In this document: piece by piece, positions 20,828 to 48,915 of the stretch
Numbering within the stretch: position 1 is the first letter of the stretch
Layout: the number at the start of each line of letters is the position of its first letter
Source of the DNA: Clostridiaceae bacterium
GTDB lineage: Bacteria > Bacillota > Clostridia > Oscillospirales > Acutalibacteraceae
Assembly: GCA_016290665.1 (NCBI GenBank)
Contig: JAEEUW010000001.1
Location: forward strand, 1 to 55,034
DNA length: 55,034 nucleotides
Direction: 5' to 3'
Notes under the pieces: generated by a model
Told to the model about the DNA's origin: nothing
Database searches by the model: none
Seen by the model: only the letters and a program-made list of their open reading frames with translations
Program-made: the position numbers and the translations under genes

Positions 20828-20841
20828 GGCCGTTTCTCCCT

Positions 20842-23800
20842 TCATCTGACAAGTTTGATGGTTTTGATCTCAAACGGGCGGAAGAACAGCGTGAGCTTGC
20901 CGCCGTCCGCCGGCAGTTCTCCCTGCACGTCCTCCAGCAGATTGGTCAGCTGCGCTTTTTTGATCGGCGCCGACAGCGTCAGGTCGGTGCGGGTTTTGCT
21001 GCCCTCGCATTCATACAGGCGCAGCACCACGGCGCCGCTGTCGTCTTCGGCGGGCTTCACCGCCTCCACGATCACGTTCGGCGCGCCGACGGCAGCGAAC
21101 GGCGGAAGGTTTGCCGCCCCCTTTGCGTCGGCAACGGGCACGTTCAGCAGATAGGCGGGCTGCACCACCGTTTCGGCCGAAAAGTCGCCGGCGTGCGGCA
21201 GCAGCGCATAGGTCATTTCATGCAGCCCCCTGTCGCCCGTAAAGTCCGGGTGGGTACCGCCGCGGTGGAGCGACAGACGCAGGTTGCAGTCCAGCACACA
21301 GATGCCGTATTTGCAGTCGTTGAGCACGGCGACGCCGAAGCGCGGCTCGCTGATATCGGTGAAGTTGCGGTTGCAGACTTCGAATTTTGCATATTCCAGA
21401 CTGTTGTTGGCGGTCGTCGGGCGTTCGATGGAGCCGAACTGGATCTCGCTTCTGGCGCGGGTGGCCGCAACGTCCAGATCGAAGCCGACCTTCAGCAGGC
21501 GGTGCGGGCTGTTCCAGTTCACCAGCGTGTGGAAATCGATGCGCGGCGAGTCGGCGTAGCAGACCAGATCCTGCGTCACGGTCGTGCCGTTTTCGATTTC
21601 GAACGTGCTGCGCAGACGGATCTCGACCGCGCCGTCGGTCACAACGCTTCTGCCGCAAAAACCCTGCACGGGCTGCAGCTTCTCGATCACGTCGCGCTCC
21701 ACGTCCCAGTTGTCCCAGGCAAGGGGCACATCTTCGCCGAACAGCAGCACGCCCAGCGGCGCGCCGCCCTTTTTGCGCAGCTCGCGGCCGGAGGCTTTGT
21801 CAAGCAGGGACGCGATGTAGCCGTTTTCGTCAAAGGTCAGCGTGGCGAACGGCGTTTCCAGCCTCGTGCCGTCATAGGAAAACGGCGAGGGCGCGTCCAG
21901 CGGCCGATCGCTCATGCGAAGCACGGCGGAGCCGAAGCCGGGCAGCTTCACGCCGCCGACGGCCAGCTTTTCTTTGCCGCACAGGTCAATATAACGCTGC
22001 GAGGGATAGTCGGCCGCAAAGCCCGCCGCGTTCAGCACGGCGACGTCGCCGCGTGGGAAGGACAGCGTGTTGAACAGCGTCACGCTGTCGCTGCCGTCGG
22101 TCAGCTTTTCGGCGTAGGCGGCCGCCGCGTCGGCGTAGCTTTGCAGCAGGTCGTCCATCTCGGTCCGGTAGACGTCATAGACCGGCTGGATGCAGGTGCC
22201 GGGCAGGATGTCGTGGAACTGGTTTTTGAGCAGCGTCTTCAGCCAGCGGTCGCTGTTTTCGTTGCGCTTTTGGCCGGAAAGAACGTTGAAATATTCCATG
22301 TTGCGCAGAGCGTATTCCGCCTTGCGGTTTTTGCGCTTCACGTCGTGCATCTGGGTCAGCGTGCCGCGGTGCAGCTCCAGATAGAGCTCGTCGTCATAGA
22401 CCGGCAGATCGTCCTTCTGCGCCTCCAGCTCTTTGCCGAAATCGCTGATCGTCATCGATTCGATCTCGGGCAGGCCTTCCGTTTCGGAGGCGCGCAGCGA
22501 GGTTTCGATCATGCCCGGGGTCGGGCCGCCGCCGCCGTCGCCGAAGCCGTAGGCCAGAAGGCGCAGGTCGGAGGCATCCTTGAGCTGCAGGTCGCGCGTG
22601 GCGGCGCTGCAGTCGTTGACGTCGGGCCAGCAGTGGGTGCGGTTGAAGTGGGTGATTACCTCGCTGCCGTCAAGTCCCTTCCAGACGAAGCTTTCATAAG
22701 GGAACCGGTTCAGCTCGTTCCAGCCGATCTTGGTCGTGTAGAAGTATTTGACCTCGCTCTGACGCATAATCTGCGGAATGTTGGCGTTGTAGCCGAAGGT
22801 ATCGGGGAGCCAGAAGCTGTCGGCCGTGTAGCCGAAGTTTTCGCGCGTGAACTGCTGCCCCTTCAGGAACTGGCGCGCCATCAGCTCGCCCGAGGTGATG
22901 TTGCAGTCGCATTCCACGTAAACGCCGCCGTTCGGCTCATAGCGGCCCTCGGCCACACGTTTTTTCATCTCCGCAAAGATGGCGGGATAGTATTCCTTCA
23001 TCCATTCGCCGTGCAGCGCGGAGGACTGAATGAACTTATAGCTCGGATACTGCTCCATCAGGTGCAGCGCGTTGGCGTAGGTGCGCGCACATTTGCGGAT
23101 CGTTTCCGACACGGGCCAGAGCCAGGCGGTGTCCATGTGGCTGTGGCCGATGATGCCCACACGGCCGAACACGCGGCTGTTGCCGCCGCGGAAAAACGGG
23201 CGCGAAATCGCAAGCGCCTTGCGCACGCCCTCGGCCACGGCCGCTTCGGAGGCGTCCTTCGGATAGAGCGGCAGCACGTCGTTGATCTGTCGCAGCGCTT
23301 TTTTGGCGCGGGCGGAAGCAAAGCTGTCCTGCGGCAGCCGGCGCGCGGCGTTCAGCAGCTCGCGCAGGTCGAAGATCAGCGTGAACACTTCTTCGTCACG
23401 GGTGCAGATCTGCACGCCGTCAAAGCTGTGGCGGAAGGTCTGCGACGTGTCCGGCGCAAAATAGTCGTCGTAGGGATCGGTGTTGGGATCGTAATGGCCG
23501 GCGTAGCATTCAAACGCAAGCGCCAGCGTTTCTCCCGCTTTCGGCTTGCCGAGGTACTGCGCCGCATGGTGACCGCCGATAAAGTCGCGGTTTTTTGTGT
23601 TATAGATACCCTTGGGCACGCTGTTCAGGAAGAACAGCTGCTCATTGCCGCCGCAGGCCGACACCGCATAGAGCGCTTTGCCGTCCAGCGCGTCGGGCAC
23701 CGTGAACGTGCCCCTGAGCCACATGTTGTTCCATTCGCCGCCCCAGGACGTGCCGGGCGCAATCGGGGCAAAGCCGGCTTCCGGCACCGCGCGCAGGTGC

Positions 23801-23931
23801 TCTTCGGTGAACAGCGCCTGCGGGTTCTGCAGCTCGCCGACCTTCCGATACACCAGTTGTTCATAGATCTTCAGCGCGTGGCCGAGCTTTTCATAGATGC
23901 GATTGTTCAGGTTCTCGTTATACATAATCAC
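20842..23931 (-). CDS. GH38 alpha-mannosidase
   Basis: 1029 aa with the GH38 signature IIGHSHMDTAWLWP. Size and domain order match cytosolic bacterial GH38 enzymes. Start is GTG 23931 or ATG 23925. Confidence 0.9.
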   Translation of the reverse strand: MIMYNENLNNRIYEKLGHALKIYEQLVYRKVGELQNPQALFTEEHLRAVPEAGFAPIAPGTSWGGEWNNMWLRGTFTVPDALDGKALYAVSACGGNEQLFFLNSVPKGIYNTKNRDFIGGHHAAQYLGKPKAGETLALAFECYAGHYDPNTDPYDDYFAPDTSQTFRHSFDGVQICTRDEEVFTLIFDLRELLNAARRLPQDSFASARAKKALRQINDVLPLYPKDASEAAVAEGVRKALAISRPFFRGGNSRVFGRVGIIGHSHMDTAWLWPVSETIRKCARTYANALHLMEQYPSYKFIQSSALHGEWMKEYYPAIFAEMKKRVAEGRYEPNGGVYVECDCNITSGELMARQFLKGQQFTRENFGYTADSFWLPDTFGYNANIPQIMRQSEVKYFYTTKIGWNELNRFPYESFVWKGLDGSEVITHFNRTHCWPDVNDCSAATRDLQLKDASDLRLLAYGFGDGGGGPTPGMIETSLRASETEGLPEIESMTISDFGKELEAQKDDLPVYDDELYLELHRGTLTQMHDVKRKNRKAEYALRNMEYFNVLSGQKRNENSDRWLKTLLKNQFHDILPGTCIQPVYDVYRTEMDDLLQSYADAAAAYAEKLTDGSDSVTLFNTLSFPRGDVAVLNAAGFAADYPSQRYIDLCGKEKLAVGGVKLPGFGSAVLRMSDRPLDAPSPFSYDGTRLETPFATLTFDENGYIASLLDKASGRELRKKGGAPLGVLLFGEDVPLAWDNWDVERDVIEKLQPVQGFCGRSVVTDGAVEIRLRSTFEIENGTTVTQDLVCYADSPRIDFHTLVNWNSPHRLLKVGFDLDVAATRARSEIQFGSIERPTTANNSLEYAKFEVCNRNFTDISEPRFGVAVLNDCKYGICVLDCNLRLSLHRGGTHPDFTGDRGLHEMTYALLPHAGDFSAETVVQPAYLLNVPVADAKGAANLPPFAAVGAPNVIVEAVKPAEDDSGAVVLRLYECEGSKTRTDLTLSAPIKKAQLTNLLEDVQGELPADGGKLTLFFRPFEIKTIKLVR

Positions 23932-23941
23932 TCGCCCTCCG

Positions 23942-24991
23942 TCAAGCCTTGTTTTCGGGTTGCGGATTCACCACGGTCAGGATGTCCTTGTTCGAAACGA
24001 TGAACGTAATTCGCTCTTCGATGGAGGGACCGCCGTGGCTGCCGCCGATGCCGCCGTGATCGGTGGTGATCAGGATCAGCCAGTCTTCGCTGTCATAGGT
24101 CGGACGTTCCGTGATTGTTTCGATGATGTCGGCGCCGGTCGCCTCCGCGTCGCGGAAGGCGCTGATATATTTCGGATTCCCCAGGCCGAAGCCACTGCCA
24201 TGACCGGCATGATCGGTATATTCCAGCGTGGAGAAGATGAAGTCGGAGCAGTCTTTCTTTCTCAGGTCGGACAGAATGTTGAATTTCGTACCCGGATCAA
24301 AGAGTGCGCGGCGATAGGTCGCGTTGACGCCGTTTTCGCGCGCATAGACCTTTTCGGGATAATAGGTCGCGTCCTTTTTGCTGAAATGACCGTCCCAAGA
24401 AACGTAAAACGCGCTCTTGTCCACCGTGCCGTCTTCCACCAGCGAAAGCAGCAGCGTCTTAGGCTCCACTTCCTTCGGTTGGCCGTTGTTGTTGATGTGA
24501 TGCACATCGGCCCAGGCGCCGGTCAGCATGGAGCACCAGCCGGGCGCGGTCGAGGTGGCCTGGGTGTTTTCCGCGGGGAAGTTGACGCCGCCCGCAAAGC
24601 TGAAGACCGCGTGTCCGCCGTCGGAAAGCAGCATGTTGATGGCGCTCTTCTTTGCCGTTGCGAGCAGACGGAACGTGTCGACCTGACAGCCGTCATAGCC
24701 GATCACGATGGCTTTCTTTTCGGTCTTGCCCTCCGGCAGCGGCGAAGCAAAGTGCGCTTTGATCAGATCATAGACCGCGGTCTGCGGCAGCGCCTCCTGC
24801 CAGGTGTTTTCCAAAACCGGCAGCGTTTCCAACGACTGTTGGTAATCCTCCGCGGCAAGGACGGCGTCGTCGCCTTCCGCGAGCCACTTGCTGGGATGAT
24901 ACGTCAGGTTATACCAGACGTAGCCGCCGATGAGTCCGCCGATGAGCAGAACGACGAGAACGGGAATCAGGATCTTTGCTGCTTTCTTCAT
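23942..24991 (-). CDS. Membrane-anchored alkaline-phosphatase-superfamily phosphodiesterase (ENPP-like)
   Basis: ORF 23942..25006 trimmed to ATG 24991 (GGGAGG 7 nt upstream). N-terminal anchor ILIPVLVVLLIGGLIGG. Motifs VIGYDGCQ, TSTAPGWCSMLTG, YTDHAGHGSG and ITTDHGG. Confidence 0.75.
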   Translation of the reverse strand: MKKAAKILIPVLVVLLIGGLIGGYVWYNLTYHPSKWLAEGDDAVLAAEDYQQSLETLPVLENTWQEALPQTAVYDLIKAHFASPLPEGKTEKKAIVIGYDGCQVDTFRLLATAKKSAINMLLSDGGHAVFSFAGGVNFPAENTQATSTAPGWCSMLTGAWADVHHINNNGQPKEVEPKTLLLSLVEDGTVDKSAFYVSWDGHFSKKDATYYPEKVYARENGVNATYRRALFDPGTKFNILSDLRKKDCSDFIFSTLEYTDHAGHGSGFGLGNPKYISAFRDAEATGADIIETITERPTYDSEDWLILITTDHGGIGGSHGGPSIEERITFIVSNKDILTVVNPQPENKA

Positions 24992-25036: not shown

Positions 25037-25073
25037 ATAATATCACGAGGTGTCCAACAAATGTCCAACAAAA
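25037..25073 (-). promoter_or_regulatory. Extended -10 promoter with 23-bp tandem direct-repeat operator (copy 1)
   Basis: Minus strand reads TTTTGTTGGACATTTGTTGGACA (25073->25051), then 8 nt, then TGaTATTAT (25045->25037). It lies 45 nt upstream of ATG 24991. The 23-mer is identical to 33711->33689. Confidence 0.7.
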
Positions 25074-25116
25074 CTTTCGATTCTTTATGAACATTTTGTA
25101 AACTTTCGGGCAAGGC

Positions 25117-25155
25117 ACAAAAAGAGCACCCGCCGGGGCGGGTGCGTTCCTTTTT
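25117..25155. terminator. Bidirectional intrinsic terminator ending the upstream minus-strand transcription unit
   Basis: Hairpin GCACCCGC-CGGG-GCGGGTGC (25126..25145) with an A-run on the left and GTTCCTTTTTG on the right, just downstream of the stop at 25164. Confidence 0.7.
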
Positions 25156-25163
25156 GTCGGTCC

Positions 25164-25646
25164 TCAGTCTTTCACAAAGATCATGTCGACCAGGTTTTCC
25201 TGTTCATACTCGTCCTGCCACATCAGCTGGTTGGCCGATACGAACTGGATGCGGCCGTAGCCGTCTTCATATTCCGTCTTGCTTTCGGTCTCGTTGCCGC
25301 TTTCGTCAAAGACGGTCAGCGTCTTCACGCCGTTCGTGTAGTTCACGCGCCAGGTGTCGGCGTCATACACGCCGGACATCGTCCAGTCGTAGAACTCAAG
25401 CGCGGAGCTGCCCCAGTGGACGGAAATCTTCACTTCGTTGTTCTCGCCGGTCTCCACCGTAATGTTGCAGCGGCCGCAGACATAGTTGCCGGCAATCTCT
25501 TCGAACGTGACAGGCGTCGCTTCGGAGACGGTGTGTTCTTCGCTGTCCGGTTTCCCGGCGGGCGTTTCGGTTTTGCCGCAGGCCGCAAACAGCGCCAGGC
25601 AGAGCACGCAGGCAAGCAGCAAAGAGACGGCTTTTTTCATGTTCAT
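25164..25646 (-). CDS. Small lipoprotein of unknown function
   Basis: ORF 25164..25871 trimmed to ATG 25646 (GGGAGG SD). Signal peptide with lipobox (LALFAAC-GK). Confidence 0.65.
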   Translation of the reverse strand: MNMKKAVSLLLACVLCLALFAACGKTETPAGKPDSEEHTVSEATPVTFEEIAGNYVCGRCNITVETGENNEVKISVHWGSSALEFYDWTMSGVYDADTWRVNYTNGVKTLTVFDESGNETESKTEYEDGYGRIQFVSANQLMWQDEYEQENLVDMIFVKD

Positions 25647-25720
25647 AAGAATACCTCCCAAAGGAATTTGATGTAGAAAGAGCAACAGCTCTTTTTTACG
25701 GTAAGGATGCGGCAAAATGC

Positions 25721-27220
25721 TCAGGAAATCAGAGCGCTGATGATCGCGCCGAGATTGGAGAACAAAAGCGAGAACACGACCAGCAACAGCAGCAGCACCG
25801 CGTGCAGCTTGCGGCTGCGGACCAGCAGACCCACGTATTCGCGGATCTGCGCGTTCGGCCAGAAATACCATTTGGTTTTGCTCGCAATCCCGTCCGCGTG
25901 CAGACCGGCGTCGTTGGCCAGAATGCCGCTGCGGAACACGTGGTAGTTGGTGGTGGAAAAGATTACGCTTGCGTCCGGCTTGCGTTCGTCAATCAGCGCC
26001 TTGGAGCATTTCATGTTCTCCTGCGTGTTGGCAGACTGCGTTTCGGCAAGGACGTCCGTTTCCGGAATCCCCAGCGAAAGCAGATAGCGCCGCACGGCCT
26101 CCCCTTCGGCCATCACCTCGTCGCTCCCCTGCCCGCCGGAGGGCACCAGCACGGGCGCCTTGCCCGTGGCCTCCTTCTGCCGCCGATAGAACGCGGCTGC
26201 CCGGTCTGCGCGGCCCTTGAGAAGCGGATAGAGCGTGCCGTCCTTTCTGATCGCGCAGCCGAGAATCAGCACGTAATCATGCGTCAGGGGCGGCTTGCGC
26301 CGCGCGGCGATCACGCAGCAATACTGCGTTGCAAACAGCATGGCAAGGAAATACAGGAACAGTGCGGAAAACACCGTCCGGACGACCGAGATCCAGAGCG
26401 CGTTCGGCTCAAAGCTCAGCATCTGCGTGTTGACAAAGGCCAGCACAACCGCCGCCAGCACGCCGCCCATCATCAGCGCGGCCAGAATCAGCGCAAGCAG
26501 GTTGGTTCTGCGCAGACCCTCGTGCCGGATCAGCCAGACGTTGCTGACCGCCATGACCACCGAGAGCAGCAGAATGAACGGCAGCGAGAGCATCACCACC
26601 GCAGTCAGGGCATACTGCGCGGCAAAGAACAGAATTCTGCCGAGCGCCTCGCCCGGATTCACCAAACAGAACACCACCAGCCCGAAAAAGACGGCGCCGT
26701 GGAGCAGAAAGAACAGACTCAGGCCGAAATTCAGCACGGTATCGTAGGAAAAGAAGGTTTCGCGCTTTCTGCGCCGATACATCAAAAACAGATAGACGCC
26801 CGCAAACAGAAAGAATGCCGCCAAAGCGCCGCACAGGATATAGAACCCATTGAAATCCAGATCGGCCGGTTCCAGTATCGTGCCGAACCGGGTCACGTAA
26901 AGGAAGGAATAATGCCTGTCTTTGAGTGTGCCGTAATCTTCGCTTGTGTGCGGAAACACAGCTGCCACTTCGGTTCCGCCGGGCTGCTTTGCCCGAAAGG
27001 TGACGGCCCAGACCTCGTCCTTCTTTTCCACCGAGATCATTTCCACAACATCGGGATTCCCGATTTCGGCCGTCACGTTCTGATAGCCGTCCTTGCTCTC
27101 GGGCATATAGATGCTGTAGGTCCGCGCGGAGAACAGCAGCAGCACAAATGTGACGGCGCCGATACAGACGCCCGCAAGGGCGATCACAAGCAGATTCTTT
27201 TTCAGGTCTGTTCGCTTCAT
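25721..27220 (-). CDS. Polytopic membrane protein with C-terminal DUF218 (YdcF/ElyC-like) domain
   Basis: 499 aa with multiple hydrophobic helices. The DUF218 pattern follows (LILGCAIRKDG...VPSGGQG...TQSANTQENM...STTNYHVFRS). Confidence 0.75.
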   Translation of the reverse strand: MKRTDLKKNLLVIALAGVCIGAVTFVLLLFSARTYSIYMPESKDGYQNVTAEIGNPDVVEMISVEKKDEVWAVTFRAKQPGGTEVAAVFPHTSEDYGTLKDRHYSFLYVTRFGTILEPADLDFNGFYILCGALAAFFLFAGVYLFLMYRRRKRETFFSYDTVLNFGLSLFFLLHGAVFFGLVVFCLVNPGEALGRILFFAAQYALTAVVMLSLPFILLLSVVMAVSNVWLIRHEGLRRTNLLALILAALMMGGVLAAVVLAFVNTQMLSFEPNALWISVVRTVFSALFLYFLAMLFATQYCCVIAARRKPPLTHDYVLILGCAIRKDGTLYPLLKGRADRAAAFYRRQKEATGKAPVLVPSGGQGSDEVMAEGEAVRRYLLSLGIPETDVLAETQSANTQENMKCSKALIDERKPDASVIFSTTNYHVFRSGILANDAGLHADGIASKTKWYFWPNAQIREYVGLLVRSRKLHAVLLLLLVVFSLLFSNLGAIISALIS

Positions 27221-27315
27221 GGGGGCGGTCTCTCCTCAGATTGGTCTGGTTCTGCAGATAAGCGTGACACAGCCGGAGCTGTGCTGCAGCCCCGGCACCG
27301 CATGTTTTGGTTTGT

Positions 27316-28026
27316 TCAGGAAGCGGATTTGGCAAGATATTCTTCCAGCGTCAGTCCGTTATCCATGATCTCTTCGGCGATCGCCGGGCTGTCGATATAG
27401 CGGAAGTGCCACGGCTCATAGGCATAGCCGGTAACGGCGTCCTTGCCTTCGGGGAAGCGCAGGATGAAGCCGTAATCGGCAAGCCGCTTGTGGATCTCGG
27501 CAAAGATTTCTTTTTCGGCGATCATCCGGTCATTGTCGTTGATGATCACGCCGTCCTTGATGATGCAGACGTCGATCGCAAGCGCGGTGTGGTGCTCGGA
27601 ATAGCCGGGCACGGCAACATACTTCTGCGTATAGTCAAGGCCGTATTCTTCCTCGAACTCCTTCCAGAGCTCCTCCTGACGCGCCACCGAACGGTAGGTG
27701 CTGTCGAGCAGGATCACGATGCCGTCCTTTTCCAAGTCCGCCTGCAGCGCGCGGAACGCCTGCAGCGCTTTCTTTTCTACCTTGAACACGTCGGTCGACA
27801 GATAGTCATTGCTTTCGTCCAGCGCCACGCCGTCCGGAACGGTGTTCTGCGCGTCTTCCAGCTCGATCACGGCTTCCCAGTTGTCGGGCAGCTTGTTTTC
27901 TTTGTTGACCAGTACGAGATAGTCATACTTCGGCGCTTCCGGCTGTTTGTCGCAGGCGGCCAGCACGCCGCAAAGACACACGGCGAACAGCAGCAGCGCC
28001 AGTGCGCGTTTCATTTGGATCTTCAC
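27316..28026 (-). CDS. VanY-like D-alanyl-D-alanine carboxypeptidase (peptidase M15B), lipoprotein
   Basis: ORF 27316..28080 trimmed to GTG 28026 (AAGGAGG 7 nt upstream). Lipobox VLAAC. Zn motifs SEHHTALAIDV and YEPWHFRY. Confidence 0.8.
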   Translation of the reverse strand: MKIQMKRALALLLFAVCLCGVLAACDKQPEAPKYDYLVLVNKENKLPDNWEAVIELEDAQNTVPDGVALDESNDYLSTDVFKVEKKALQAFRALQADLEKDGIVILLDSTYRSVARQEELWKEFEEEYGLDYTQKYVAVPGYSEHHTALAIDVCIIKDGVIINDNDRMIAEKEIFAEIHKRLADYGFILRFPEGKDAVTGYAYEPWHFRYIDSPAIAEEIMDNGLTLEEYLAKSAS

Positions 28027-28054
28027 GGAACAGCCTCCTTTGTTTTTTGTGCGT

Positions 28055-29113
28055 TCAGCGTTCTTCATCAAACGCAACAACTGTGTCGGTTGCTGCCGAT
28101 TCGAAGATCGCTTCGATCAGCTTGAGGCACCGGCGCATCTGGCGGTGGGTCACCGTCTGCGCCGCGCCGTTGCGGATCACGTCATAGATATTGTCATAAT
28201 AGGCCGTCCATTCGCCATGCACCTTTTCCAGCGGGGCGTCGTGGATGGTCTCGTCCGTGCGGGGCGCCATGGTCTTGGTGATGCCCATGCCCGCCTTGAT
28301 CGGCACGGCGTCGATCTTGTCCCAGTTGTGCACCAGCGTCATTTTGCCGGAAAGATCCCAGTCTTCGATCACGGCGGTGCCGTTTTCGCCGAGGATGTAC
28401 CAGCGCGGCAGGGAGATGAAGTTGTTCGTGGTCACTTCCACGTAATAGCTCAGCCCGTTTTCAAACCGCAGCTCACAATAGAATCCGTCGTCGCATTCGT
28501 CGTTGGTGATCTGCGTGATCTGGGCCCAGACGCTTTTGAGCTTCACGCCGTCGTTCATCGTCAGCGCCTGATCGAGCAGATGGACGCCCCAGTCAAGCAC
28601 CATGCCGCCGCCGTGGATCTTCTCTCTGCGCCAGTCGCCGGGAATTCCGCGGGAGCCCTGCACGCGCGATTCGATGCGGAACACCTTGCCCAGCAGGTTC
28701 TTGTCGGCAATGTTCCGCATGGTCAGATAGTCTTCGTCCCAGCGGCGGTTCTGGTGCACGGTGAAGAGCCTGCCCGTCTCTTTCGATACGGCAATCATCT
28801 CGTCGAGCTCCCGAAGGTTCATGGCCACCGGCTTTTCCGAAATCACGTTTTTGCCCGCCCGCATTGCTTCGATGCAAAGCGGCTTATGCACATCGTTCCA
28901 GGTGGCGACCACCACCAGCTCCACGCTGTCGTCCGCCAGCAGATCTGCAAACGAGGTGTAGGTGTGAATGCCGCAGTTTCTTGCGTTCACAAGCTGATCG
29001 GGGTTGATATCCCACACGCCGGTCAGCTCAAATTTTTCCATTTCGGCAATGCGTTCGGTGTGCCAGCCGCCCATGCCGCCGTAACCGACAACGGCCACTT
29101 TGATCGGTTTCAT
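28055..29113 (-). CDS. Gfo/Idh/MocA-family NAD(P)-dependent oxidoreductase
   Basis: 352 aa. N-terminal Rossmann segment KVAVVGYGGMGGWH and the family-typical EKP motif (ISEKPVA). Confidence 0.88.
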   Translation of the reverse strand: MKPIKVAVVGYGGMGGWHTERIAEMEKFELTGVWDINPDQLVNARNCGIHTYTSFADLLADDSVELVVVATWNDVHKPLCIEAMRAGKNVISEKPVAMNLRELDEMIAVSKETGRLFTVHQNRRWDEDYLTMRNIADKNLLGKVFRIESRVQGSRGIPGDWRREKIHGGGMVLDWGVHLLDQALTMNDGVKLKSVWAQITQITNDECDDGFYCELRFENGLSYYVEVTTNNFISLPRWYILGENGTAVIEDWDLSGKMTLVHNWDKIDAVPIKAGMGITKTMAPRTDETIHDAPLEKVHGEWTAYYDNIYDVIRNGAAQTVTHRQMRRCLKLIEAIFESAATDTVVAFDEER

Positions 29114-29138
29114 CTGTTTTGCCTCACTTTGCTCTGAA

Positions 29139-30104
29139 TCAGACCCACCACATGCTGCCGGGCTGCTCGCCCATGATGCAGCGCTTGAGCATGGAGACGG
29201 CCCGTTCCAGACCCTCCCGCTGGCTCATGATGGAGTCTTCGTGTTCAATCGAGATCGCGTGGTCATAGCCGACCATGCGCAGGTTGCTGATGATCTCTTT
29301 CCAATAAAGCTCGTCGTGGCCGTAGCCGACCGCGCGGAAGACCCACGAGCGGTGAATCTCGTCGCCGTAGGGCTTGTTGTCGAGCACGCCGTTGACGGCG
29401 GTGTTGTATTTGTCCACCTTGGTGTCCTTGGCGTGGAAATGGAAGATCACGTCGCCCAGCGCGCGGATGACCGCCACGGGCTCCATGCCCTGCCAGATCA
29501 GATGGCTCGGGTCAAGGTTGGCGCCCAGCGCGGGGCCGATCTCCCTGCGGATGCGCAGCATGGATTCGGTGTTGTAGACGCAGAAGCCGGGATGCAGCTC
29601 AAAGCCGATCTTGTCTACGCCGTGGTCCGCCGCGAACTGCACGAAATCGGACCAATAGGGCAGCAGCACATCGTTCCACTGATAGTTCAGAATATCGCCG
29701 AACTCGTTGGGCCACGGACAGGTGACCCAGTTCGGGTTCTCCGAATTCGGGCAGTCGCCCGGGCAGCCGGAAAAGGTGTTGATCTGGTGCACGCCGAGCT
29801 TTTCGGCAAGCAATATCGCCTGCTTCATCTCATCATCGAACCGCTTTGCAACGTCCTTGTTCGGATGCACGGGGTTGCCGTGGCAGCTGATGGCGCTGAT
29901 GCCGACGTTGTATTTCGCAATCAGGTCCCTGAACTTCTGCAGCTCGGTCTCGCTGTGCAGCAGAACGGCGGGGTCCGCGTGCTGTTTGCCGGGGTAGCCG
30001 CCCGCGCCGATCTCCACCATCTCGATGCCGAGCGAGGTGAAATAGTCGAGCGCCTTTTCCAGCGGCCAGCTGCCGAGCATGTTTGTCAATACGCCGAGTT
30101 TCAT
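29139..30104 (-). CDS. Xylose-isomerase-like TIM-barrel protein (sugar phosphate isomerase/epimerase family), paralogue 1
   Basis: ORF 29139..30125 trimmed to ATG 30104 (AAGGAG 8 nt upstream). AP_endonuc_2-type patterns (EIGAGGYPG, FELHPG, FHAKD, SIEHED). Confidence 0.85.
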   Translation of the reverse strand: MKLGVLTNMLGSWPLEKALDYFTSLGIEMVEIGAGGYPGKQHADPAVLLHSETELQKFRDLIAKYNVGISAISCHGNPVHPNKDVAKRFDDEMKQAILLAEKLGVHQINTFSGCPGDCPNSENPNWVTCPWPNEFGDILNYQWNDVLLPYWSDFVQFAADHGVDKIGFELHPGFCVYNTESMLRIRREIGPALGANLDPSHLIWQGMEPVAVIRALGDVIFHFHAKDTKVDKYNTAVNGVLDNKPYGDEIHRSWVFRAVGYGHDELYWKEIISNLRMVGYDHAISIEHEDSIMSQREGLERAVSMLKRCIMGEQPGSMWWV

Positions 30105-30117
30105 GATTGTTTCTCCT

Positions 30118-30852
30118 TTATCCAAAGTGCTTTTTCAAATACGCCATGCTTCTTGTCACGTCCGAGATGCCGTCCGGCACCGGGTCGTCGTTTTCCACAA
30201 TGACCCACTCCATGCCGATCTTTTCGGCCGCGTCCAGAATGGCGGCAATGTCGTTTTCCCCTTCCCCGATGGCGCACGGGGTGCCGTCCACGCCGTCTTT
30301 CAGGTGGATCAGGCAGATGCGGTCTTTGTTTTCACGCAAAAAGGTTTTGTTGTCCACGCCCGCGCGAAAGCTCCAGTAGGTGTCGATTTCCAGCCACATC
30401 CGTTCGCCGAGCCGTTCCAGAATCGTTCTGTCGTCCGCGCTGTCTTCCGGCGGCTGAAACTCGCCGGTGTGATTGTGGAAATAGACCTTGACGCCCTGCG
30501 GTTCAAACGCGTCGTTTGCGCCGCCGAGGATCTCGATCACACGGCAAAGATCCTGTTCCGTGCCGGTGGGCCCGCCGCCGACGCCGACGCAGGCGCAGCC
30601 GAGCGTTTGATAAAACGCCAGCGTTTTGTCTCTGTTTTCCGGGGTGAAATCATCCACGCCCAGATGGGTGCCGACACAGACGAGGCCGAGTTCGTCAAGC
30701 TTTGCTTTGATCGTTTCCGCAGGAAGACCCTGGGTCCCCGCGAATTCCACGCCCTCATAGCCGGCCTGCTTCACGTGTTCCAGCGCTTTGAGCAGATCGT
30801 CGCCGTTGTCAATGCCGTCACGCACGGAATACATCTGTACCGCGAATTTCAC
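30118..30852 (-). CDS. Xylose-isomerase-like TIM-barrel protein, paralogue 2
   Basis: 244 aa. N-terminus MKFAVQMYSVRD... followed by GYEGVEFAG, YFHNHTGEF and HLKDG. Confidence 0.85.
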   Translation of the reverse strand: MKFAVQMYSVRDGIDNGDDLLKALEHVKQAGYEGVEFAGTQGLPAETIKAKLDELGLVCVGTHLGVDDFTPENRDKTLAFYQTLGCACVGVGGGPTGTEQDLCRVIEILGGANDAFEPQGVKVYFHNHTGEFQPPEDSADDRTILERLGERMWLEIDTYWSFRAGVDNKTFLRENKDRICLIHLKDGVDGTPCAIGEGENDIAAILDAAEKIGMEWVIVENDDPVPDGISDVTRSMAYLKKHFG

Positions 30853-30866
30853 GCCGCATCACTCCT

Positions 30867-31676
30867 TTACATGATGGCTTTCAGATAATCGACGCTTTCT
30901 TTGATGCACTGCATCGGCGTCTTGCCCTTGCTCGGGCTGTCGATCTCAACGATGCCCCATTCGGTGCCGGATTCTTCGGCAGCCCTGACAAGCGCGGGAA
31001 TATTCTGCAGACCCTGGCCGAGCGGACGGAATTCAAAGTCGCCGACCGTCTCTTCCTTTTGGCCGTCGTTCACGCCGATCAGGGCATACATGTTCTCGCT
31101 CTTTTTGCCCGCAAAATCCTTGAAGTGGATAATGTCCACGCGGCCCGCGTATTTGCGGATGTATTCCACGGGGTCCGCGCCGCCGACGTTGACCCAGCAG
31201 GTGTCGAGCTCGGCCAGCAGCAGATCGGCCGGAATGGTCTCATAGATCACGTCGAGCGCATATTTTCCGTCGATCTTTTCAAATTCAAAATCATGGTTGT
31301 GATACGCCAGACGCATGCCGTTCTTTTTGGCAAAGGCGCCGAGGATCGCCGCGTCGCCGATCATCTTTTCAAAGCCCGGCTTACCCGGACGGTCGCTTTC
31401 GCCGAGCCACGGGATGGCCACAAATTTGCAGCCGATGGCGGCATAGGATTCCAGCACGAACGGGTTGTCGCGCATCTCGTCGAGCGGCACGTGCGCCGAA
31501 ACGGGCACAAGGCCGTATTTGCCGCAAAGCGCCTTCACCTCTTCGGCCGATTTGCCGAACAGGCCGGCGAACTCCACGCCTTCATAGCCCATGGCGGCCA
31601 CTTCTTTGAGCGTGCCTTCAAAATCTTTTTCCATTTCGTCGCGAACGGAATAAAGCTGTACACCGATTTTCATCAT
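30867..31676 (-). CDS. Xylose-isomerase-like TIM-barrel protein, paralogue 3
   Basis: ORF 30867..31682; start among three in-frame ATGs (31676 preferred, AAGGA SD). Contains KIGVQLYSVRD, GYEGVEFAG, AYHNHDFEF and HFKD. Closest in pattern to paralogue 2. Confidence 0.85.
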   Translation of the reverse strand: MMKIGVQLYSVRDEMEKDFEGTLKEVAAMGYEGVEFAGLFGKSAEEVKALCGKYGLVPVSAHVPLDEMRDNPFVLESYAAIGCKFVAIPWLGESDRPGKPGFEKMIGDAAILGAFAKKNGMRLAYHNHDFEFEKIDGKYALDVIYETIPADLLLAELDTCWVNVGGADPVEYIRKYAGRVDIIHFKDFAGKKSENMYALIGVNDGQKEETVGDFEFRPLGQGLQNIPALVRAAEESGTEWGIVEIDSPSKGKTPMQCIKESVDYLKAIM

Positions 31677-31678
31677 GA

Positions 31679-32479
31679 TCATCCTTTATAAAGCAGTTTG
31701 GAAATATAGTCGATGGTGAAATCCACGCCCCAGTCGCCCATGGCGCCTTTCCAGGTGTCCGAATGCGGTTCAATGGAGAGCATGCCGTCGTAGCCGACTG
31801 CATAGAGCAGGCCGAGCACGGCGTTCCAGTTTGTGCCGTCCAGCCCGGCGGGCGGGTCGTCCACGTGTTCGCCGGCAACGTTCAGCGTGCCCTTGACGTG
31901 GAAGTGGAAGATTTTGCTGCCGAATTCCCGGATCTCCGCCAGGCAGTCGCCGTGGTGGACGTTGATGCAGTGCGAGGGGTCAAATTTGATTCCGAGCCCC
32001 GGCACGGCCTCCAGCACGATGCGCCAGACGGACGGCTCCCGGATCCAGTTGTTCCAGTCGCAGTTATAGACCGCAACCTTCACGCCCTTCGTTTCGCCGT
32101 AGGCCACCGCTTCACGCAGGAACCGCACGGCGGCGTTGAGGTTGTCGAGATAGGTCAGCTCCCGCACATAGTTGACGCCGGTGTTGAACACGGGCGCGCC
32201 GAGCGCGGCGGCAATGTCGATCAGGCGTCGGGTGTTGCAGCGTCCCTCTTCCAGCAGTTCCCCGTCGGGGCCGACCTTGTCTTCGCCCCAGCGGCCGAGC
32301 GCGCCGAGGTGCAGATCATGGTCTGCATAAACCCTTTTCAGTTCCGGAATGCGCGCCTCCAGCAGATCGAGATCCGCGCCGACGTTGTAGCAGTATTCGA
32401 GATAGTGCAGACCCTTGCCGGCAGCCCATTCTGCGCTTTGAACGTCGGGGTCCGCAATGATGCCGAGTTTCATCGTCAT
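31679..32479 (-). CDS. Xylose-isomerase-like TIM-barrel protein, paralogue 4
   Basis: 266 aa with TIM-barrel patterns (VAVYNCDWNNW, KFDPSH, FHFHVKG, SIEPHSD). Confidence 0.85.
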   Translation of the reverse strand: MTMKLGIIADPDVQSAEWAAGKGLHYLEYCYNVGADLDLLEARIPELKRVYADHDLHLGALGRWGEDKVGPDGELLEEGRCNTRRLIDIAAALGAPVFNTGVNYVRELTYLDNLNAAVRFLREAVAYGETKGVKVAVYNCDWNNWIREPSVWRIVLEAVPGLGIKFDPSHCINVHHGDCLAEIREFGSKIFHFHVKGTLNVAGEHVDDPPAGLDGTNWNAVLGLLYAVGYDGMLSIEPHSDTWKGAMGDWGVDFTIDYISKLLYKG

Positions 32480-32488
32480 AGTCTTACC

Positions 32489-33643
32489 TTACACTTCCGG
32501 AATCTCAATGGCGATTTCATGGCCGGCCGCCGCGGAGCGGACGATGCCGTCGATGATCGCCTGATTGATGACGATTTCGCTGGAGGGCACGCTCGGCTTG
32601 CCGCCCTGCTGAATCGCGTCCACAAAGGAGCGGATCTTTTCATAGAACAGATCCTTCGTCGGCTTCAGCGGCACCTTGTATTCGATCTCTTCGCCGCAGA
32701 CGGTCTTATAGATGGTCAGCGGCTCGTCGAATTCGCCGTTCCAGCAGTCGGTGGAGGGAATGCGCAGACCGCCTCTGGTGCCGAGGATGATCGCGTCGCC
32801 CGGGGTGTCCATGTTCATGGCCCAGGAGATACGGAAGTCGAGGATGATGTCGCCCTCCAGACGGATGAAGCCCGCGGCAAAATCGTCCACGCCGAATTTC
32901 TCGGCATAGTCGGGATGGCCGGGATAATAGTTCGGGTCCTTGCCGAAATAGCTGGAGGTATAGCCGGTCACGGTCAGCGGCTTCGGATAGCCCACCGCGC
33001 CGAGCAGCATGTCGAGCGAATAGGTGCCGATGTCGCCCACGGCGCCGATGCCGCCGGTTCCCTTTTCAATGAAGGACGTGCCGAACGGGGTCGGAATGCC
33101 GCGCCGTCTGCCGCCGCCGGACTGGATGTAATAGACCTTGCCCAGCTCGCCGGACTGCACGATCTTCTTGATCATCTGCATGTTCGCGCTCATGCGCGGC
33201 TGGAAGCCGATGGTGAGAATCTTGCCGCTGCGCTTTTCGGCGCGCATGACCTCGATCGCCTCGTCCAGCGTGACGGTGAACGGCTTTTCCAGCATGACGT
33301 TGATGCCGGCGTCCAGCGCGTGGATGGCGCAGGGCGCGTGCTGGCAGTTGTAGGTGCAGATGCTCACGCCGTCCAGGTCGGGCTCCGCGGCGATCATGGC
33401 CTCGTCGCTCTCATAGATGCGCGCGCCGGTGATGCCGAACCGTTCGGCGAAGGCCGCCGCCTTGCCGGGGATCAGATCCGCCAGCGCGACGATCTCCACG
33501 TCGTCCATTTTCAGATAGTTTTCCGCGTGGCATTCGGCGATCCAGCCGGTGCCGATGATGCCGATCTTCAGTTTTCTGCCGGTCGTTTTGGTTTCGGTTT
33601 CATGGATCTCTTTGAAAGCGTCCAAGCCTGCTGCGTTTGCCAT
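32489..33643 (-). CDS. Gfo/Idh/MocA-family NAD(P)-dependent oxidoreductase (first gene of operon)
   Basis: ORF 32489..33709 trimmed to ATG 33643 (AAGGAGG SD). Rossmann segment KIGIIGTGWIAECH and EKP motif (MLEKPFT). Confidence 0.88.
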   Translation of the reverse strand: MANAAGLDAFKEIHETETKTTGRKLKIGIIGTGWIAECHAENYLKMDDVEIVALADLIPGKAAAFAERFGITGARIYESDEAMIAAEPDLDGVSICTYNCQHAPCAIHALDAGINVMLEKPFTVTLDEAIEVMRAEKRSGKILTIGFQPRMSANMQMIKKIVQSGELGKVYYIQSGGGRRRGIPTPFGTSFIEKGTGGIGAVGDIGTYSLDMLLGAVGYPKPLTVTGYTSSYFGKDPNYYPGHPDYAEKFGVDDFAAGFIRLEGDIILDFRISWAMNMDTPGDAIILGTRGGLRIPSTDCWNGEFDEPLTIYKTVCGEEIEYKVPLKPTKDLFYEKIRSFVDAIQQGGKPSVPSSEIVINQAIIDGIVRSAAAGHEIAIEIPEV

Positions 33644-33674
33644 AGTGTTTCCTCCTTGGTCTTTGATTGCTTTT

Positions 33675-33711
33675 ATCATAGCACAGATTGTCCAACAAAT
33701 GTCCAACAAAA
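33675..33711 (-). promoter_or_regulatory. Extended -10 promoter with 23-bp tandem direct-repeat operator (copy 2)
   Basis: Minus strand reads TTTTGTTGGACATTTGTTGGACA (33711->33689), then 8 nt, then TGcTATGAT (33683->33675). It lies 31 nt upstream of ATG 33643. Architecture matches copy 1. Confidence 0.7.
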
Positions 33712-33801: not shown

Positions 33802-33843
33802 CAAAAAAACGGCCCGACGTCTGCCGGGCACAGACGTCAAGCC
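33802..33843 (-). terminator. Intrinsic terminator of the glnA-ANTAR operon
   Basis: Minus strand reads CGGCTTGACGTCTG-tgcccgg-CAGACGTCGGGCCG followed by TTTTTTT, about 95 nt after the stop at 33939. Confidence 0.8.
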
Positions 33844-33938
33844 GTTTTGCGCAGCTCTTGCAAAGCCGCCTTTTCATTATAATATAGTCCGCTCTTTTTC
33901 GGGGGGCGGTTCGGGGCGCCAGAGCGGGTTTTGCGCGG

Positions 33939-34520
33939 TTACCCCTGTTCCACAATCTCCTGCGCGACCGCGCGGCGGGTCACGCAGCGGTCCATCGCCT
34001 GCTTTTCGATATAGCGGTGCGCCTGCGGCTCGTCCATCCCGCGGTGCTCGATCAAAATCCACTTGGCGCGGTTGACCAGACGGATTTCCTCCATCTTCTC
34101 CTGCAGGGTGAGCGTCTTTTTTTCGGTTTTGCGCAGCCGTTCGCGGGCGGTCGCCATCCACTGCAGCGCCGTTGCCATCCGCCCCGCGGAGGTCGGCTTC
34201 AAAAGCGTGAATACGCCGTAGGGCGTCAGCCGTTCGGTCACTTCCGCATAGAACGCCTCGCGCAGCAGCAAAAGCGCAACCGTCTCGTTGCCGCCGCAGA
34301 CGTCCACGGCAAAGCGCAGGCCCATGTCGTCGGGCAGCGGCGCGTTGATGATGACGAAATCAAAGGCGTGTTCGGCAACCGCGCGCTTAGCGGTGCTCAC
34401 ATCGCCCACCACGCGCACCGGGTCGTAGCCGGAGGAAGGCAGAAGCGGCAGCAGCGCGGCGTTGAACTGTTCCGCCGCGGAGACGACAAGAACACTGTAG
34501 ACGCGTTCCTTCAGATCCAT
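33939..34520 (-). CDS. ANTAR-domain RNA-binding antiterminator with degenerate (pseudo-)receiver domain
   Basis: 193 aa. C-terminal ANTAR pattern RAKWILIEHRGMDEPQAHRYIEKQAMDRCVTRRAVAQEIV. N-terminal CheY-like fold lacks the acidic pocket (VVSAAE) and has Asn where the phospho-acceptor Asp is expected (DFVIINAPLPDD). Confidence 0.85.
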   Translation of the reverse strand: MDLKERVYSVLVVSAAEQFNAALLPLLPSSGYDPVRVVGDVSTAKRAVAEHAFDFVIINAPLPDDMGLRFAVDVCGGNETVALLLLREAFYAEVTERLTPYGVFTLLKPTSAGRMATALQWMATARERLRKTEKKTLTLQEKMEEIRLVNRAKWILIEHRGMDEPQAHRYIEKQAMDRCVTRRAVAQEIVEQG

Positions 34521-34559
34521 ATCTGCTTCCTCCTTCCTTTTGTTTCGGACTTCCCCGGG

Positions 34560-35771
34560 TTATCTGTTGCAGTAGATATCCAGCACGCGCGCCGGCACGT
34601 GGGCGCGGATGAATTCGCTGGTCGCCGCCGCGGTACAGGCGGACGCGAGCGACGCCGGCAGCTTCTGATACTGCGCGAGCGTCTGGGCGTTTTCCTTGAA
34701 CAGATTGACGTCAGACGGCGCCGGCAGAGGCAGGTTCTTTTCCAGACCGTTCAGCGCGGCGTAGATTATCAGCGCGAACGCGAGATAGGGGTTCGCCGTG
34801 GGGTCGGCGGAGCGCAGCTCCATGCGGCGGTATTCGTCGGCGGCCGCAGGCACGCGGATCAGCTGCGAGCGGTTTTCACCCGACCAGGAGATATAGGCCG
34901 GGGCCTTGTTCTTGCCCAGCCGCTGATAGGAGCTTTCGGTCGGGTTCAAAAACGCCGTCATGTCCTGCGCGTGCGCCAGCACGCCAGCCATCACGTTCTG
35001 CAGCACGGAATCGTCCGCGCACGGCTGCACGGAAAGGTTGATGTGGAACCCGTTGCCCGGCGCGTGCGGCAAAGGCTTTGCGGAAAAATCGGCAAACAGA
35101 CCGTTGCGGTGCGCCACGGTCTTGACCACGGTCTGGAAGGTCATGGCCTGATCGGCGGCGGTCAGCGCGTCGGCGTAGCGGAAATCGATCTCGTTCTGGC
35201 CGGGACCCTGTTCGTGGTGGGAGCTTTCGGGGCGGATGCCCATCTGCTCCAGCGTCAGGCAGATCTCGCGGCGCACGTTTTCGCCCTTGTCCTCGGGCGC
35301 GATGTCCATGTAGCCCGCGTCGTCATAGGGCTCCTTCGTCGGCCTGCCGTTTTCGTCCAGACGGAACAGATAGAATTCCTGCTCGGCGCCGAAGAAGAAC
35401 GAATACCCCTGCCGCGCGGCGTCCGCCATCGCCTGCTTGAGCAGACTGCGCGTGTCGCATTCAAAGGGCGTACCGTCGGGATAGGTGATGCGCGTGAACA
35501 TGCGCACCACGCGGCCCTGCTCGGGCCGCCACGGCAGCAGCGTCAGAGTGTCCGGCTCCGGCCAGAGCAGCAGGTCGGAGCGCGCCTCGTCGCCGAACCC
35601 GGCAATGGCCGACGCGTCAAACGCGATCCCGTAGCGGAACGCGCGCTCCAGCTCGTCGGAAAGAATCGAGATATTCTTCTGCTTGCCGAGCACGTCGCAG
35701 AACGCCAGACGGATAAACTTGATATCCTCCTCCTGCACAAACTGCAGAACCTCGTCTTTGGAAAATTGCAA
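34560..35771 (-). CDS. glnA: Glutamine synthetase (type I)
   Basis: ORF 34560..36095 trimmed to TTG 35771 (AGGAGG 8 nt upstream). The N-terminus then begins at the conserved beta-grasp (KDEVLQFVQEEDIKFIRLAFCDVLG). GS motifs PGNGFHINLS and DPTANPYLAFA. Confidence 0.88.
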   Translation of the reverse strand: MQFSKDEVLQFVQEEDIKFIRLAFCDVLGKQKNISILSDELERAFRYGIAFDASAIAGFGDEARSDLLLWPEPDTLTLLPWRPEQGRVVRMFTRITYPDGTPFECDTRSLLKQAMADAARQGYSFFFGAEQEFYLFRLDENGRPTKEPYDDAGYMDIAPEDKGENVRREICLTLEQMGIRPESSHHEQGPGQNEIDFRYADALTAADQAMTFQTVVKTVAHRNGLFADFSAKPLPHAPGNGFHINLSVQPCADDSVLQNVMAGVLAHAQDMTAFLNPTESSYQRLGKNKAPAYISWSGENRSQLIRVPAAADEYRRMELRSADPTANPYLAFALIIYAALNGLEKNLPLPAPSDVNLFKENAQTLAQYQKLPASLASACTAAATSEFIRAHVPARVLDIYCNR

Positions 35772-35790
35772 AGGAAGCACCTCCTGATTG

Positions 35791-35855
35791 TCTGAAAAAG
35801 AAATCGCCCATTCAGGCTCAGCTTGGCTGAGCCTGAATGAACGCCGTTGCTCATT
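35791..35855 (-). promoter_or_regulatory. glnA 5' leader: hexaloop hairpin overlapping an intrinsic-terminator-like stem-loop (candidate ANTAR-controlled attenuator)
   Basis: Minus strand has a 7-bp hairpin AATGAGC-AACGGC-GTTCATT (35855->35836). It is followed by a perfect 14-bp stem CATTCAGGCTCAGC / GCTGAGCCTGAATG (35839->35809, 3-nt loop) and then GGCGATTTCTTTTTC. The two structures share 4 nt. Confidence 0.6.
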
Positions 35856-35861
35856 GATTTT

Positions 35862-35890
35862 ATTATACGCACGAAAGACCACCGCGTCAA
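35862..35890 (-). promoter_or_regulatory. SigA-type promoter of glnA
   Basis: Minus strand reads TTGACG (35890->35885), a 17-nt spacer, then TATAAT (35867->35862). Confidence 0.7.
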
Positions 35891-35989
35891 GAGAAAACGG
35901 CAAAAAAACACATTCCACAAAAACGGTGCGCGCCGTCCGCCGCTTTTTGGATTGTTTGCAACATTTTAAAAAAAGATGACCGTTTTTTG

Positions 35990-37505
<1,516 letters not shown>

Positions 37506-44742: not shown

Positions 44743-44769
44743 AAGCACTGCAGAAGCAGTGCTTTTTTC
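44743..44769 (+). terminator. Intrinsic terminator after dapL
   Basis: AAGCACTGC-agaa-GCAGTGCTT followed by TTTT. The 3' arm and T-run merge into direct-repeat copy 1. Confidence 0.8.
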
Positions 44770-44798
44770 CTGGCGGAGATGAGGCCAACGAACCCCTT
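44762..44798. repeat. 37-nt direct repeat, copy 1 (tRNA-3'-end-like on the minus strand)
   Basis: CTTTTTTCCTGGCGGAGATGAGGCCAACGAACCCCTT matches 47072..47108 at 36/37 positions (A/G difference at 44788/47098). Confidence 0.85.
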
Positions 44799-45605: not shown

Positions 45606-45830
45606 ATCGACATCGTCAAAATGAAAAAGCCCTTGCTGCGTTCAATCTCTTCGTTTTTCCAAAAGAAGAAGCCTTGCCTTTATCATTTTTTATTTTTAAA
45701 AAAGAAAACATTACGCATCAAAAGCCTGCGTTTTTTCACAGAAAGAAGCCTGCGCGTCAACGCAGAAAAGAATGGGAGAGAATTGTATGGAAAAGCCCCG
45801 TTCCTTCATGCACAAACAAGGATTCCCCTC

Positions 45831-45859
45831 TCGACATTTTTCAAAAACTATAGTATAAT
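45831..45859 (+). promoter_or_regulatory. Promoter of the GDPD gene
   Basis: TCGACA (45831..45836), a 17-nt spacer, then TATAAT (45854..45859), in an AT-rich 310-nt divergent intergenic region. Confidence 0.6.
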
Positions 45860-45917
45860 AAATCCAGACCATCCTGCGCCGCGCGCAGGCCGACAATACG
45901 GAGAGGGAGCAAAGCAC

Positions 45918-48914: not shown

Positions 48915-48915
48915 G

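Follow-up and report, generated by a model that had tools for sequence, protein, structure and literature searches.

Two long rows of minus-strand enzyme genes, on a 55,034-nt stretch of DNA from a Clostridiaceae bacterium (the whole stretch that was analysed, referred to here as the window), are each preceded by the same short tandem repeat, which raises the question of what this repeat is, which protein would read it, and whether it joins the two rows into one regulon. Across the whole window, the 23-mer TTTTGTTGGACATTTGTTGGACA has two exact matches, both on the minus strand, at 33711-33689 (copy 2) and 25073-25051 (copy 1). The 23-mer is composed of a leading T and two head-to-tail units of the 11-bp sequence TTTGTTGGACA, giving a 22-base direct tandem repeat. 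TTTGTTGGACA itself has four exact occurrences and a fifth that carries a single mismatch (51827-51837, within a GntR-type ORF), against 0.58 occurrences expected from shuffled sequence, and five matches were reached in 0 of 100 shuffles. No additional tandem site is present in the window, even with up to three mismatches tolerated.

The layout of copy 2 agrees in full with the original prediction of tandem 11-mers, an 8-nt spacer, an extended -10 element and 31 nt before the start codon. The distal repeat, including the leading T, occupies 33700-33711 (T at 33711, 11-mer at 33710-33700) at a predicted position of approximately -39 to -29, over the -35 position, and the proximal repeat occupies 33689-33699 at a predicted position of approximately -31 to -21. 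An 8-nt spacer, atctgTGc (33688-33681), places a TG (33683-33682) at the extended -10 position and is followed by the hexamer TATGAT (33680-33675), so that the extended -10 reads TGcTATGAT. The predicted 5' UTR (33641-33674) contains an AAGGAGG ribosome-binding site (33657-33651) and leads to the ATG at 33643, 31 nt separating the hexamer from this codon, and transcription would start near 33668-33670. Copy 1 was correctly predicted to match copy 2: the identical 23-mer (25051-25073) is followed, at 25037-25050, by the 8-nt spacer cctcgTGa and the hexamer TATTAT (25042-25037), forming the extended -10 TGaTATTAT, and then by a GGGAGG ribosome-binding site and an ATG at 24991 on the minus strand. 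The distance from repeat to -10 is 8 nt at both window sites. The repeats had also been thought to account for two spurious plus-strand ORF starts, through an ATG or GTG within each; this holds for copy 1, where the GTG of ORF 25050-25676 overlaps the repeat, but not for copy 2, where TTG codons serve as the mechanical ORF starts inside the repeat (minus strand, 33709 and 33698; plus strand, 33688).

When the -10 is set as -12 to -7, the repeat cores fall at about -39 to -32 and -28 to -21, and the centre of the box lies near -28.5. A properly spaced -35 is absent at both sites. The sole -35-like hexamer is the TGGACA of the distal repeat, which matches TTGACA at five of six positions and lies 19 bp from the -10, the usual spacing between -35 and -10 being 16-18 bp. 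Some basal promoter activity without a regulator, by way of this hexamer, is possible.

Both copies are positioned directly downstream of an intrinsic terminator, suggesting that they are promoter-proximal elements of independent transcription units. The terminator upstream of copy 2 (33806-33848, minus) follows the gene of an ANTAR-domain response regulator and is predicted to shield the copy-2 promoter from upstream transcription. The terminator upstream of copy 1 (25126-25145, minus) ends the row headed by copy 2, termed unit 2, which extends over 8.5 kb (25164-33643, minus). Unit 2 encodes a GFO/IDH/MocA oxidoreductase, four xylose-isomerase-like TIM barrels, a second GFO oxidoreductase, VanY, DUF218 and a 235-aa ORF that matches no family. 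Unit 1, headed by copy 1, extends over 19 kb (6105-24991, minus) to a terminator-like site at 6071-6052, and is interrupted by a 306-nt non-coding gap (15166-15471). Before the gap are genes for a membrane-anchored type I phosphodiesterase, GH38, an EEP phosphatase, GH3, Metallophos and a second phosphodiesterase; after it are genes for an MBL+TIM fusion, a WbsX/GH99-like protein, GH3, Metallophos, a GH63/MGH1-like hydrolase and an FGGY kinase. No gene for a DNA-binding regulator or a transporter is present in either unit. The gap contains a GC-rich hairpin (15420-15439) and neither a coding-strand T-run nor a copy of the box, and may serve for partial termination, for transcript processing or as a region with an internal promoter. 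A single 19-kb transcript of unit 1 is plausible. The two copies had been proposed to control about 27 kb of genes; the shared sites do tie both gene rows into one regulon, but they would not necessarily drive the whole 8.5 kb and 19 kb, and unit 1 is interrupted by the hairpin-bearing gap.

Other features of the window lie outside these two units. The DNA immediately upstream of copy 2 carries a glutamine synthetase gene with the ANTAR-domain response regulator gene directly after it (33939-36095, minus), the strong terminator described above separating both from copy 2; the glutamine synthetase-ANTAR pair is conserved in the loci L001-L003. The ANTAR regulator (33939-34520) was considered as the box-binding protein and rejected, as it is of the RNA-binding antiterminator type. 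A separate minus-strand cluster (47976-52409) encodes a GntR/FCD regulator, a glycyl-radical enzyme (PFL-like) and a radical-SAM activase. The GntR/FCD gene (51405-52409) was likewise rejected as the source of the regulator: it contains the lone one-mismatch 11-mer inside its coding region, and this occurrence looks like chance. A 37-nt direct repeat, CTTTTTTCCTGGCGGAGATGAGGCCAaCGAACCCCTT, occurs at 44762-44798 and 47072-47108 in copies that are 97% identical, with a short hairpin before each, and brackets the Prok-RING (44891-45430, minus) and GDPD (45537-46760, plus) genes. The reverse complement of CTTTTTTCCTGGCGGAGATGAGGCCAaCGAACCCCTT resembles a tRNA 3' end; no tRNA was detected in the window by ARAGORN, and no Rfam family was found there.

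To determine how widely the element occurs, its 18-mer core, TTGGACATTTGTTGGACA, was searched across GTDB species representatives, with one genome per species. At least 120 stretches matched, whereas approximately 17 would be expected by chance by our own estimate (approximately 1.2e12 positions divided by 4^18). Among the matches listed, about 100 stretches, from about 80 assemblies by our own count, belong to rumen or gut Clostridia, mostly from the rumen, and 16 are scattered among non-Clostridial genomes. The carrier groups among the matches listed are Lachnospiraceae (among them cultured strains of Butyrivibrio, as well as Lachnospiraceae bacterium XBB2008), Ruminococcaceae, Oscillospiraceae, Blautia, Solobacterium and one Coriobacteriaceae bin. 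A phage origin of the motif was rejected, given that the 18-mer is found on only six viral contigs. Literature searches with the exact 18-mer or an 11-mer substring returned no relevant paper.

An alignment of 116 unique Clostridial contexts, anchored on the 18-mer, shows that the geometry of the window sites is shared. A TAnnnT -10 lies exactly 8 nt downstream in 89 of the 116 contexts and in none of the 16 non-Clostridial matches. Positions that formed no part of the search are also conserved, both upstream, where the bases of TTTG are present in 89, 85, 106 and 113 of the 116 contexts, respectively, and downstream, where T at +26 (109/116), A at +27 (111/116) and T at +31 (103/116) form a TAtaaT -10. 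The TG of the extended -10 position is present as T in 77 and as G in 65. Nothing is conserved further upstream of TTTG across the 116 contexts, which indicates that two repeats are the norm. Extra tandem 11-mers do occur, with three in L016 (5027-5055) and four each in L105 (6968-7007) and L213 (219-269), and, in those whose sequence was inspected, 8 nt still separate the last unit from the -10. Most of the genes that come first after the motif show no relationship to each other, 49 of 110 being singletons, and the fixed geometry is therefore ascribed to functional constraint rather than to common descent of the sequence. In 49 of the 110, the N-terminus is signal-peptide-like or membrane-anchor-like. 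Other sampled targets are Metallophos, GH3, GH43, HAD, SpoIIE-type phosphatases, a GAF-ABC ATPase, DUF3592 and, in large number, secreted proteins that lack known domains; recurrent members of the regulon are VanY, DUF218 and phosphodiesterases.

These alignments bear on whether any dedicated factor is needed. The element might be a core-promoter feature, that is, an unusual -35 or UP-like element read by sigma-A or an alternative sigma factor, or a horizontally spread promoter cassette, as the five-of-six match of the distal TGGACA to TTGACA and the identity of the 18-mer in several bacterial families would allow. However, the hexamer is spaced beyond the usual range, the proximal repeat cannot serve as a -35, and the -10 is a standard sigma-A extended -10. 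The exact tandem duplication, extended to three or four units in L016, L105 and L213, is not a feature of sigma factors, and a cassette is at odds both with the unrelated flanks outside the box and with the scarcity of the 18-mer on viral contigs. We regard this explanation as highly improbable.

Two further groups of sites differ from the pattern above. In Alphaproteobacteria and Steroidobacteraceae MAGs (L059, L062, L098, L107 and L111), the 18-mer sits in another shared context, ..ATA-TTGGACATTTGTTGGACA.., which has no -10 and lies 60-90 nt from an apparent tRNA 3' end on the opposite strand (ggggattcgaacc); the 18-mer may be there by chance, within a conserved element of another kind. Two Lachnospiraceae sites (L004, 666-683, and L015, 3613-3630) also lack a -10, lie beside a conserved 'ggggtcaggtccc(a/g)ttgac' element and are followed by short ORFs of 75-77 aa, and may represent a different use of the box.

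A candidate for the protein that reads the box emerges from the genes around it. The largest families among the first downstream genes are a response regulator of approximately 265 aa (11 sites) and a multi-pass histidine kinase of approximately 410 aa (7 sites), and each is present within the 8-kb locus in approximately 30 motif loci. By our own estimate, which takes one or a few gene copies per genome, the expectation for such co-location is well under 1%. The regulator possesses the Pfam domains Response_reg and Trans_reg_C, and the kinase possesses His_kinase (PF06580) and HATPase_c. In one subgroup (L131-L133), a 92-aa gene matching PF18895 (T4SS_pilin) lies approximately 210 nt past the regulator gene, after the kinase-regulator pair, suggesting that regulon content varies widely across lineages.

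The association was also examined in the reverse direction, using 80 metagenome loci selected by homology to the regulator alone. The exact 18-mer is present in 34 of these loci and a site with at most two mismatches in 56, and many of the loci that lack the motif are contigs too short to reach the upstream region. A matrix built from 65 unique sites of this set reads nnTG-TTGGACA-T(T/C)TG-TTGGACA, with an invariant GGA, and TAnnnT lies exactly 8 nt downstream in 71 of 90 near-matches. Since 56 of 80 loci chosen by the regulator carry the motif, the link between motif and regulator holds both ways. Like the element itself, its fixed geometry and its conservation, this two-way statistical link with the regulator genes is directly seen. 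The association being statistical, a different transcription factor might bind the box, the two-component system being merely a frequent member of its regulon. This is a quite unlikely account, given that the candidate response regulator is the only DNA-binding protein that recurs at motif-anchored or regulator-anchored loci and that its winged-helix class is known to read direct repeats with an 11-bp period.

The genes of the window are drawn into the same regulon by their orthologues. An orthologous GFO1-TIM1-TIM2-TIM4-GFO2 operon stands behind a box in L014, with 72-89% amino acid identity to the window, and an orthologous PDE1-GH38-GH3a operon stands behind a box in L071, with 61-81% identity. 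The proposal that the element connects two enzyme sets is supported by the shared sites and by these operons, which keep the element elsewhere. In L124, one exact box heads the series regulator-Metallophos-GH3-GDSL-Phosphodiest-WbsX, in which Phosphodiest is 72% identical to PDE2 of the window and WbsX is 79% identical to WbsX of the window, and a second exact box heads divergent DUF5060/apiosidase-GH3 genes. A WbsX that is 79% identical to that of the window directly follows the regulator in L190. In L124 and L190, these close homologues of unit-1 genes are predicted to share a transcript with the candidate regulator. VanY homologues are located behind or beside a box in L031, L060, L076 and L088.

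The window itself contains no homologue of the regulator or the kinase, as judged by tblastn with the candidate pair. None of the fetched loci comes from the same species as the window, the best nucleotide identity being approximately 80%. Among the regulator/kinase loci, three that derive from sister metagenome assemblies (L173, L174 and L187) show a tetranucleotide correlation of 0.96 with the window, compared with 0.97-0.985 among chunks of the window itself and 0.93 for relatives at 80% nucleotide identity. By composition only, these three are the best candidates for the window's own regulator/kinase locus. In L173, where the kinase gene spans 2760-4004 and the regulator gene 4001-4801, a Metallophos gene divergent from these two stands behind an exact box.

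The class of the regulator was assessed from its domains and modelled fold. The receiver domain retains the phospho-acceptor and switch residues D8, D53, T81 and K101, and the best structural matches of an AlphaFold model of the regulator (pLDDT 83) are full-length OmpR/PhoB regulators such as DrrB, PrrA, PhoP, RpaA and VanR. No NCBIfam equivalog was reached, the PhoB models giving 60 bits against a cut-off of 296. A LytTR regulator had been suggested by the N-terminus MKIICIDDE and by the PF06580 kinase, as LytTR regulators are the usual partners of PF06580 kinases and bind 9-bp repeats approximately 21 bp apart; this was rejected because the protein possesses Trans_reg_C in place of a LytTR domain and the repeat period is 11 bp. 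Past the winged helix lies a conserved tail of approximately 45 residues, CDLYRF..GD..A..YRGEYM..Y.WA. The Pfam BTAD domain was found in 0 of 19 C-terminal halves, even at E<=10, and a profile of the tail alone gave no match in the PDB, on which grounds membership of the SARP family was rejected. The sole BTAD-like hint comes from EmbR, a SARP, in a weak match (E=0.019) that extends approximately 25 residues beyond the winged helix, and an AlphaFold model of the C-terminal half, made from a single sequence, was too poor to use (pLDDT 52.5). The regulator is best assigned, on sequence and model together, to the OmpR/PhoB class, and is neither PhoB/PhoP nor LytTR nor a demonstrated SARP. It also resembles the COG3947 'SAPR family' in that its close homologue P0055 bears the JGI label 'two-component SAPR family response regulator', but differs in having no BTAD match, the COG3947 category being REC-wHTH-BTAD. 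Searches for COG3947 or 'SAPR family' found no experimental work on any member or its DNA site.

Taken together, both sites are probably the activator box of a two-component response regulator, used in place of a -35, with the regulator encoded outside the window. We infer that this regulator is present in the genome, that it physically binds the box and that it activates rather than represses. In the proposed mechanism, genes elsewhere in the source genome would encode the regulator, which consists of a receiver, an OmpR/PhoB winged helix and the approximately 45-residue tail, and its partner, the multi-pass PF06580-type kinase. The phosphorylated regulator would bind the box as two molecules side by side on the same face of the DNA, one per 11-bp repeat (core TG-TTGGACA). 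The box, at approximately -39 to -18, would stand in for a properly spaced -35 hexamer, and from it the regulator would recruit or position sigma-A RNA polymerase on the extended -10 promoter, a mode likened to that of SARP activators ('sigma adaptation') and of PhoB at Pho boxes. One signal would in this way switch on the oxidoreductase/TIM-barrel and phosphoesterase/glycosidase operons together.

The placement of the box can be compared with that of SARP activators, which possess an OmpR-type DNA-binding domain and recognise direct repeats with a spacing of 11 or 22 bp, the 3' one lying 8 bp away from the -10 (PMC10936776). The afs box bound by AfsR at the afsS promoter comprises two 11-bp repeats centred at -29.5, a protomer contacting the first 8 bp of each repeat, and the SARP dimer forms a docking surface for sigma region 4 in place of a -35 (PMC10936776). 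The present element likewise consists of two direct repeats with an 11-bp period in a 22-bp box that extends over the -35 and into the spacer, 8 bp separating the 3' repeat from the -10, and the SARP geometry (11- or 22-bp period, 8 bp to the -10) is found at the window sites and in their relatives. The box centre agrees with that of AfsR within 1 bp, each repeat contains approximately 8-9 conserved bases followed by approximately three looser ones, the regulators share the OmpR-type winged helix, and the promoters share a poor or misplaced -35. The two systems differ, however, in their hosts, which are Bacillota here and Actinobacteria for SARPs, and in their targets, which are enzyme and surface-protein operons here and antibiotic clusters for SARPs. 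The regulator here is under the control of an N-terminal receiver domain and a histidine kinase, and has only the conserved tail of approximately 45 aa in place of a detectable BTAD; the -10 is a strong extended -10 here and suboptimal at afsS. As the BTAD is the source of many SARP contacts with polymerase, the detailed mechanism may differ from that of SARPs.

Regulators of the OmpR/PhoB class recognise direct repeats that are spaced by one helical turn. Head-to-tail direct repeats, within the 10-11-bp period of such boxes, are found at the two window sites and at the 116 and 65 related sites, and the box lies at -35 with fixed phasing at the two window sites, in the 89 of 116 and in the 71 of 90, in keeping with boxes of this class. 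The box resembles the Pho box and other OmpR/PhoB boxes (PhoP, PmrA and KdpE) in that two 11-bp repeats, each a 7-bp core with a 4-bp T-rich linker, replace the -35, and the regulator resembles PhoB in its architecture of a receiver and a winged helix. It differs from PhoB in scoring far below the PhoB cut-off, and the box differs from the Pho box in sequence and in the kinase that accompanies it, which is of the PF06580 type and not of the PhoR-type HisKA/PAS. The Pho box also lies approximately 2 bp further from the -10 than this element. The site bound by PhoB is a 22-bp region with two 11-bp direct repeats (PMC3978041). The presence of many phosphoesterases in the regulon means that the system may have a phosphate-related role, and had suggested that the element is itself a Pho box. 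This was rejected: the regulator fails as a PhoB/PhoP equivalog, the kinase does not resemble PhoR, and the sampled genes downstream of the motif include no pst or pho genes.

The direction of control bears on the original prediction, in which the repeats were called an operator. On a repressor reading, RNA polymerase would be blocked at an otherwise constitutive extended -10 promoter by a protein on the repeats, either this regulator or another one, until an inducer or a change in phosphorylation lifted the block. The box does overlap the core promoter, and a TGn extended -10 is frequent and can function without a -35, so that a protein at -39 to -18 could exclude polymerase. Some OmpR/PhoB regulators repress from such positions, and M. 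tuberculosis PhoP is described as both an activator and a repressor (PMC11825685). However, a roadblock requires no exact phasing, yet 8 nt separate the repeat from the -10 in most contexts of both alignments, and there is no properly spaced -35. The geometry is that of SARP activators, and the regulator and kinase genes themselves lie behind the box, the usual pattern of positive autoregulation. Classical repressor operators of the LacI, GntR and TetR types are inverted repeats at variable positions; the present element consists of direct repeats at a position fixed to the nucleotide. Repression is therefore an unlikely reading, and the term operator in that sense is not upheld. The direct repeats with an 11-bp period in the -35 region, set exactly 8 nt from an extended -10, argue instead for an activator that contacts RNA polymerase, as in the preferred reading of the box as the site of a two-component activator.

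A more specific form of this reading can be put forward tentatively, and it is rather less likely than the activator box itself. The regulator could be a BTAD-less, receiver-gated 'mini-SARP' of Bacillota, which would work by sigma adaptation from a box at approximately -29 on a sigma-A extended -10. Its site, TG-TTGGACA in two copies, would be near-invariant in 80 or more species, mostly from the rumen, that belong to several families, and its regulon of secreted and cell-envelope proteins and of enzymes that degrade phosphodiesters and glycosides would change fast.

The type of cis-element is familiar; what is new is the specific motif, its near-invariance over approximately 80 species, the PF06580 kinase with which it is paired and its SARP-like placement in Bacillota. 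If the proposed mechanism is true, two copies of TG-TTGGACA, 8 nt and a -10 would suffice to identify which genes an uncharacterised two-component system controls in dozens of rumen and gut Clostridia, most of them uncultured. Cultured carriers are Butyrivibrio sp. NC2002, LC3010, WCD3002 and JL13D10 and Lachnospiraceae bacterium XBB2008; at least four exact sites are present in Butyrivibrio sp. NC2002. In the window, the oxidoreductase/TIM-barrel and phosphoesterase/glycosidase pathways, which annotation alone leaves unlinked, would be functionally joined. SARP-type promoter geometry, so far actinobacterial, would extend to Bacillota and to a phosphorylation-gated regulator that lacks a BTAD, and the system would offer a simple test of how far 'sigma adaptation' depends on the BTAD.
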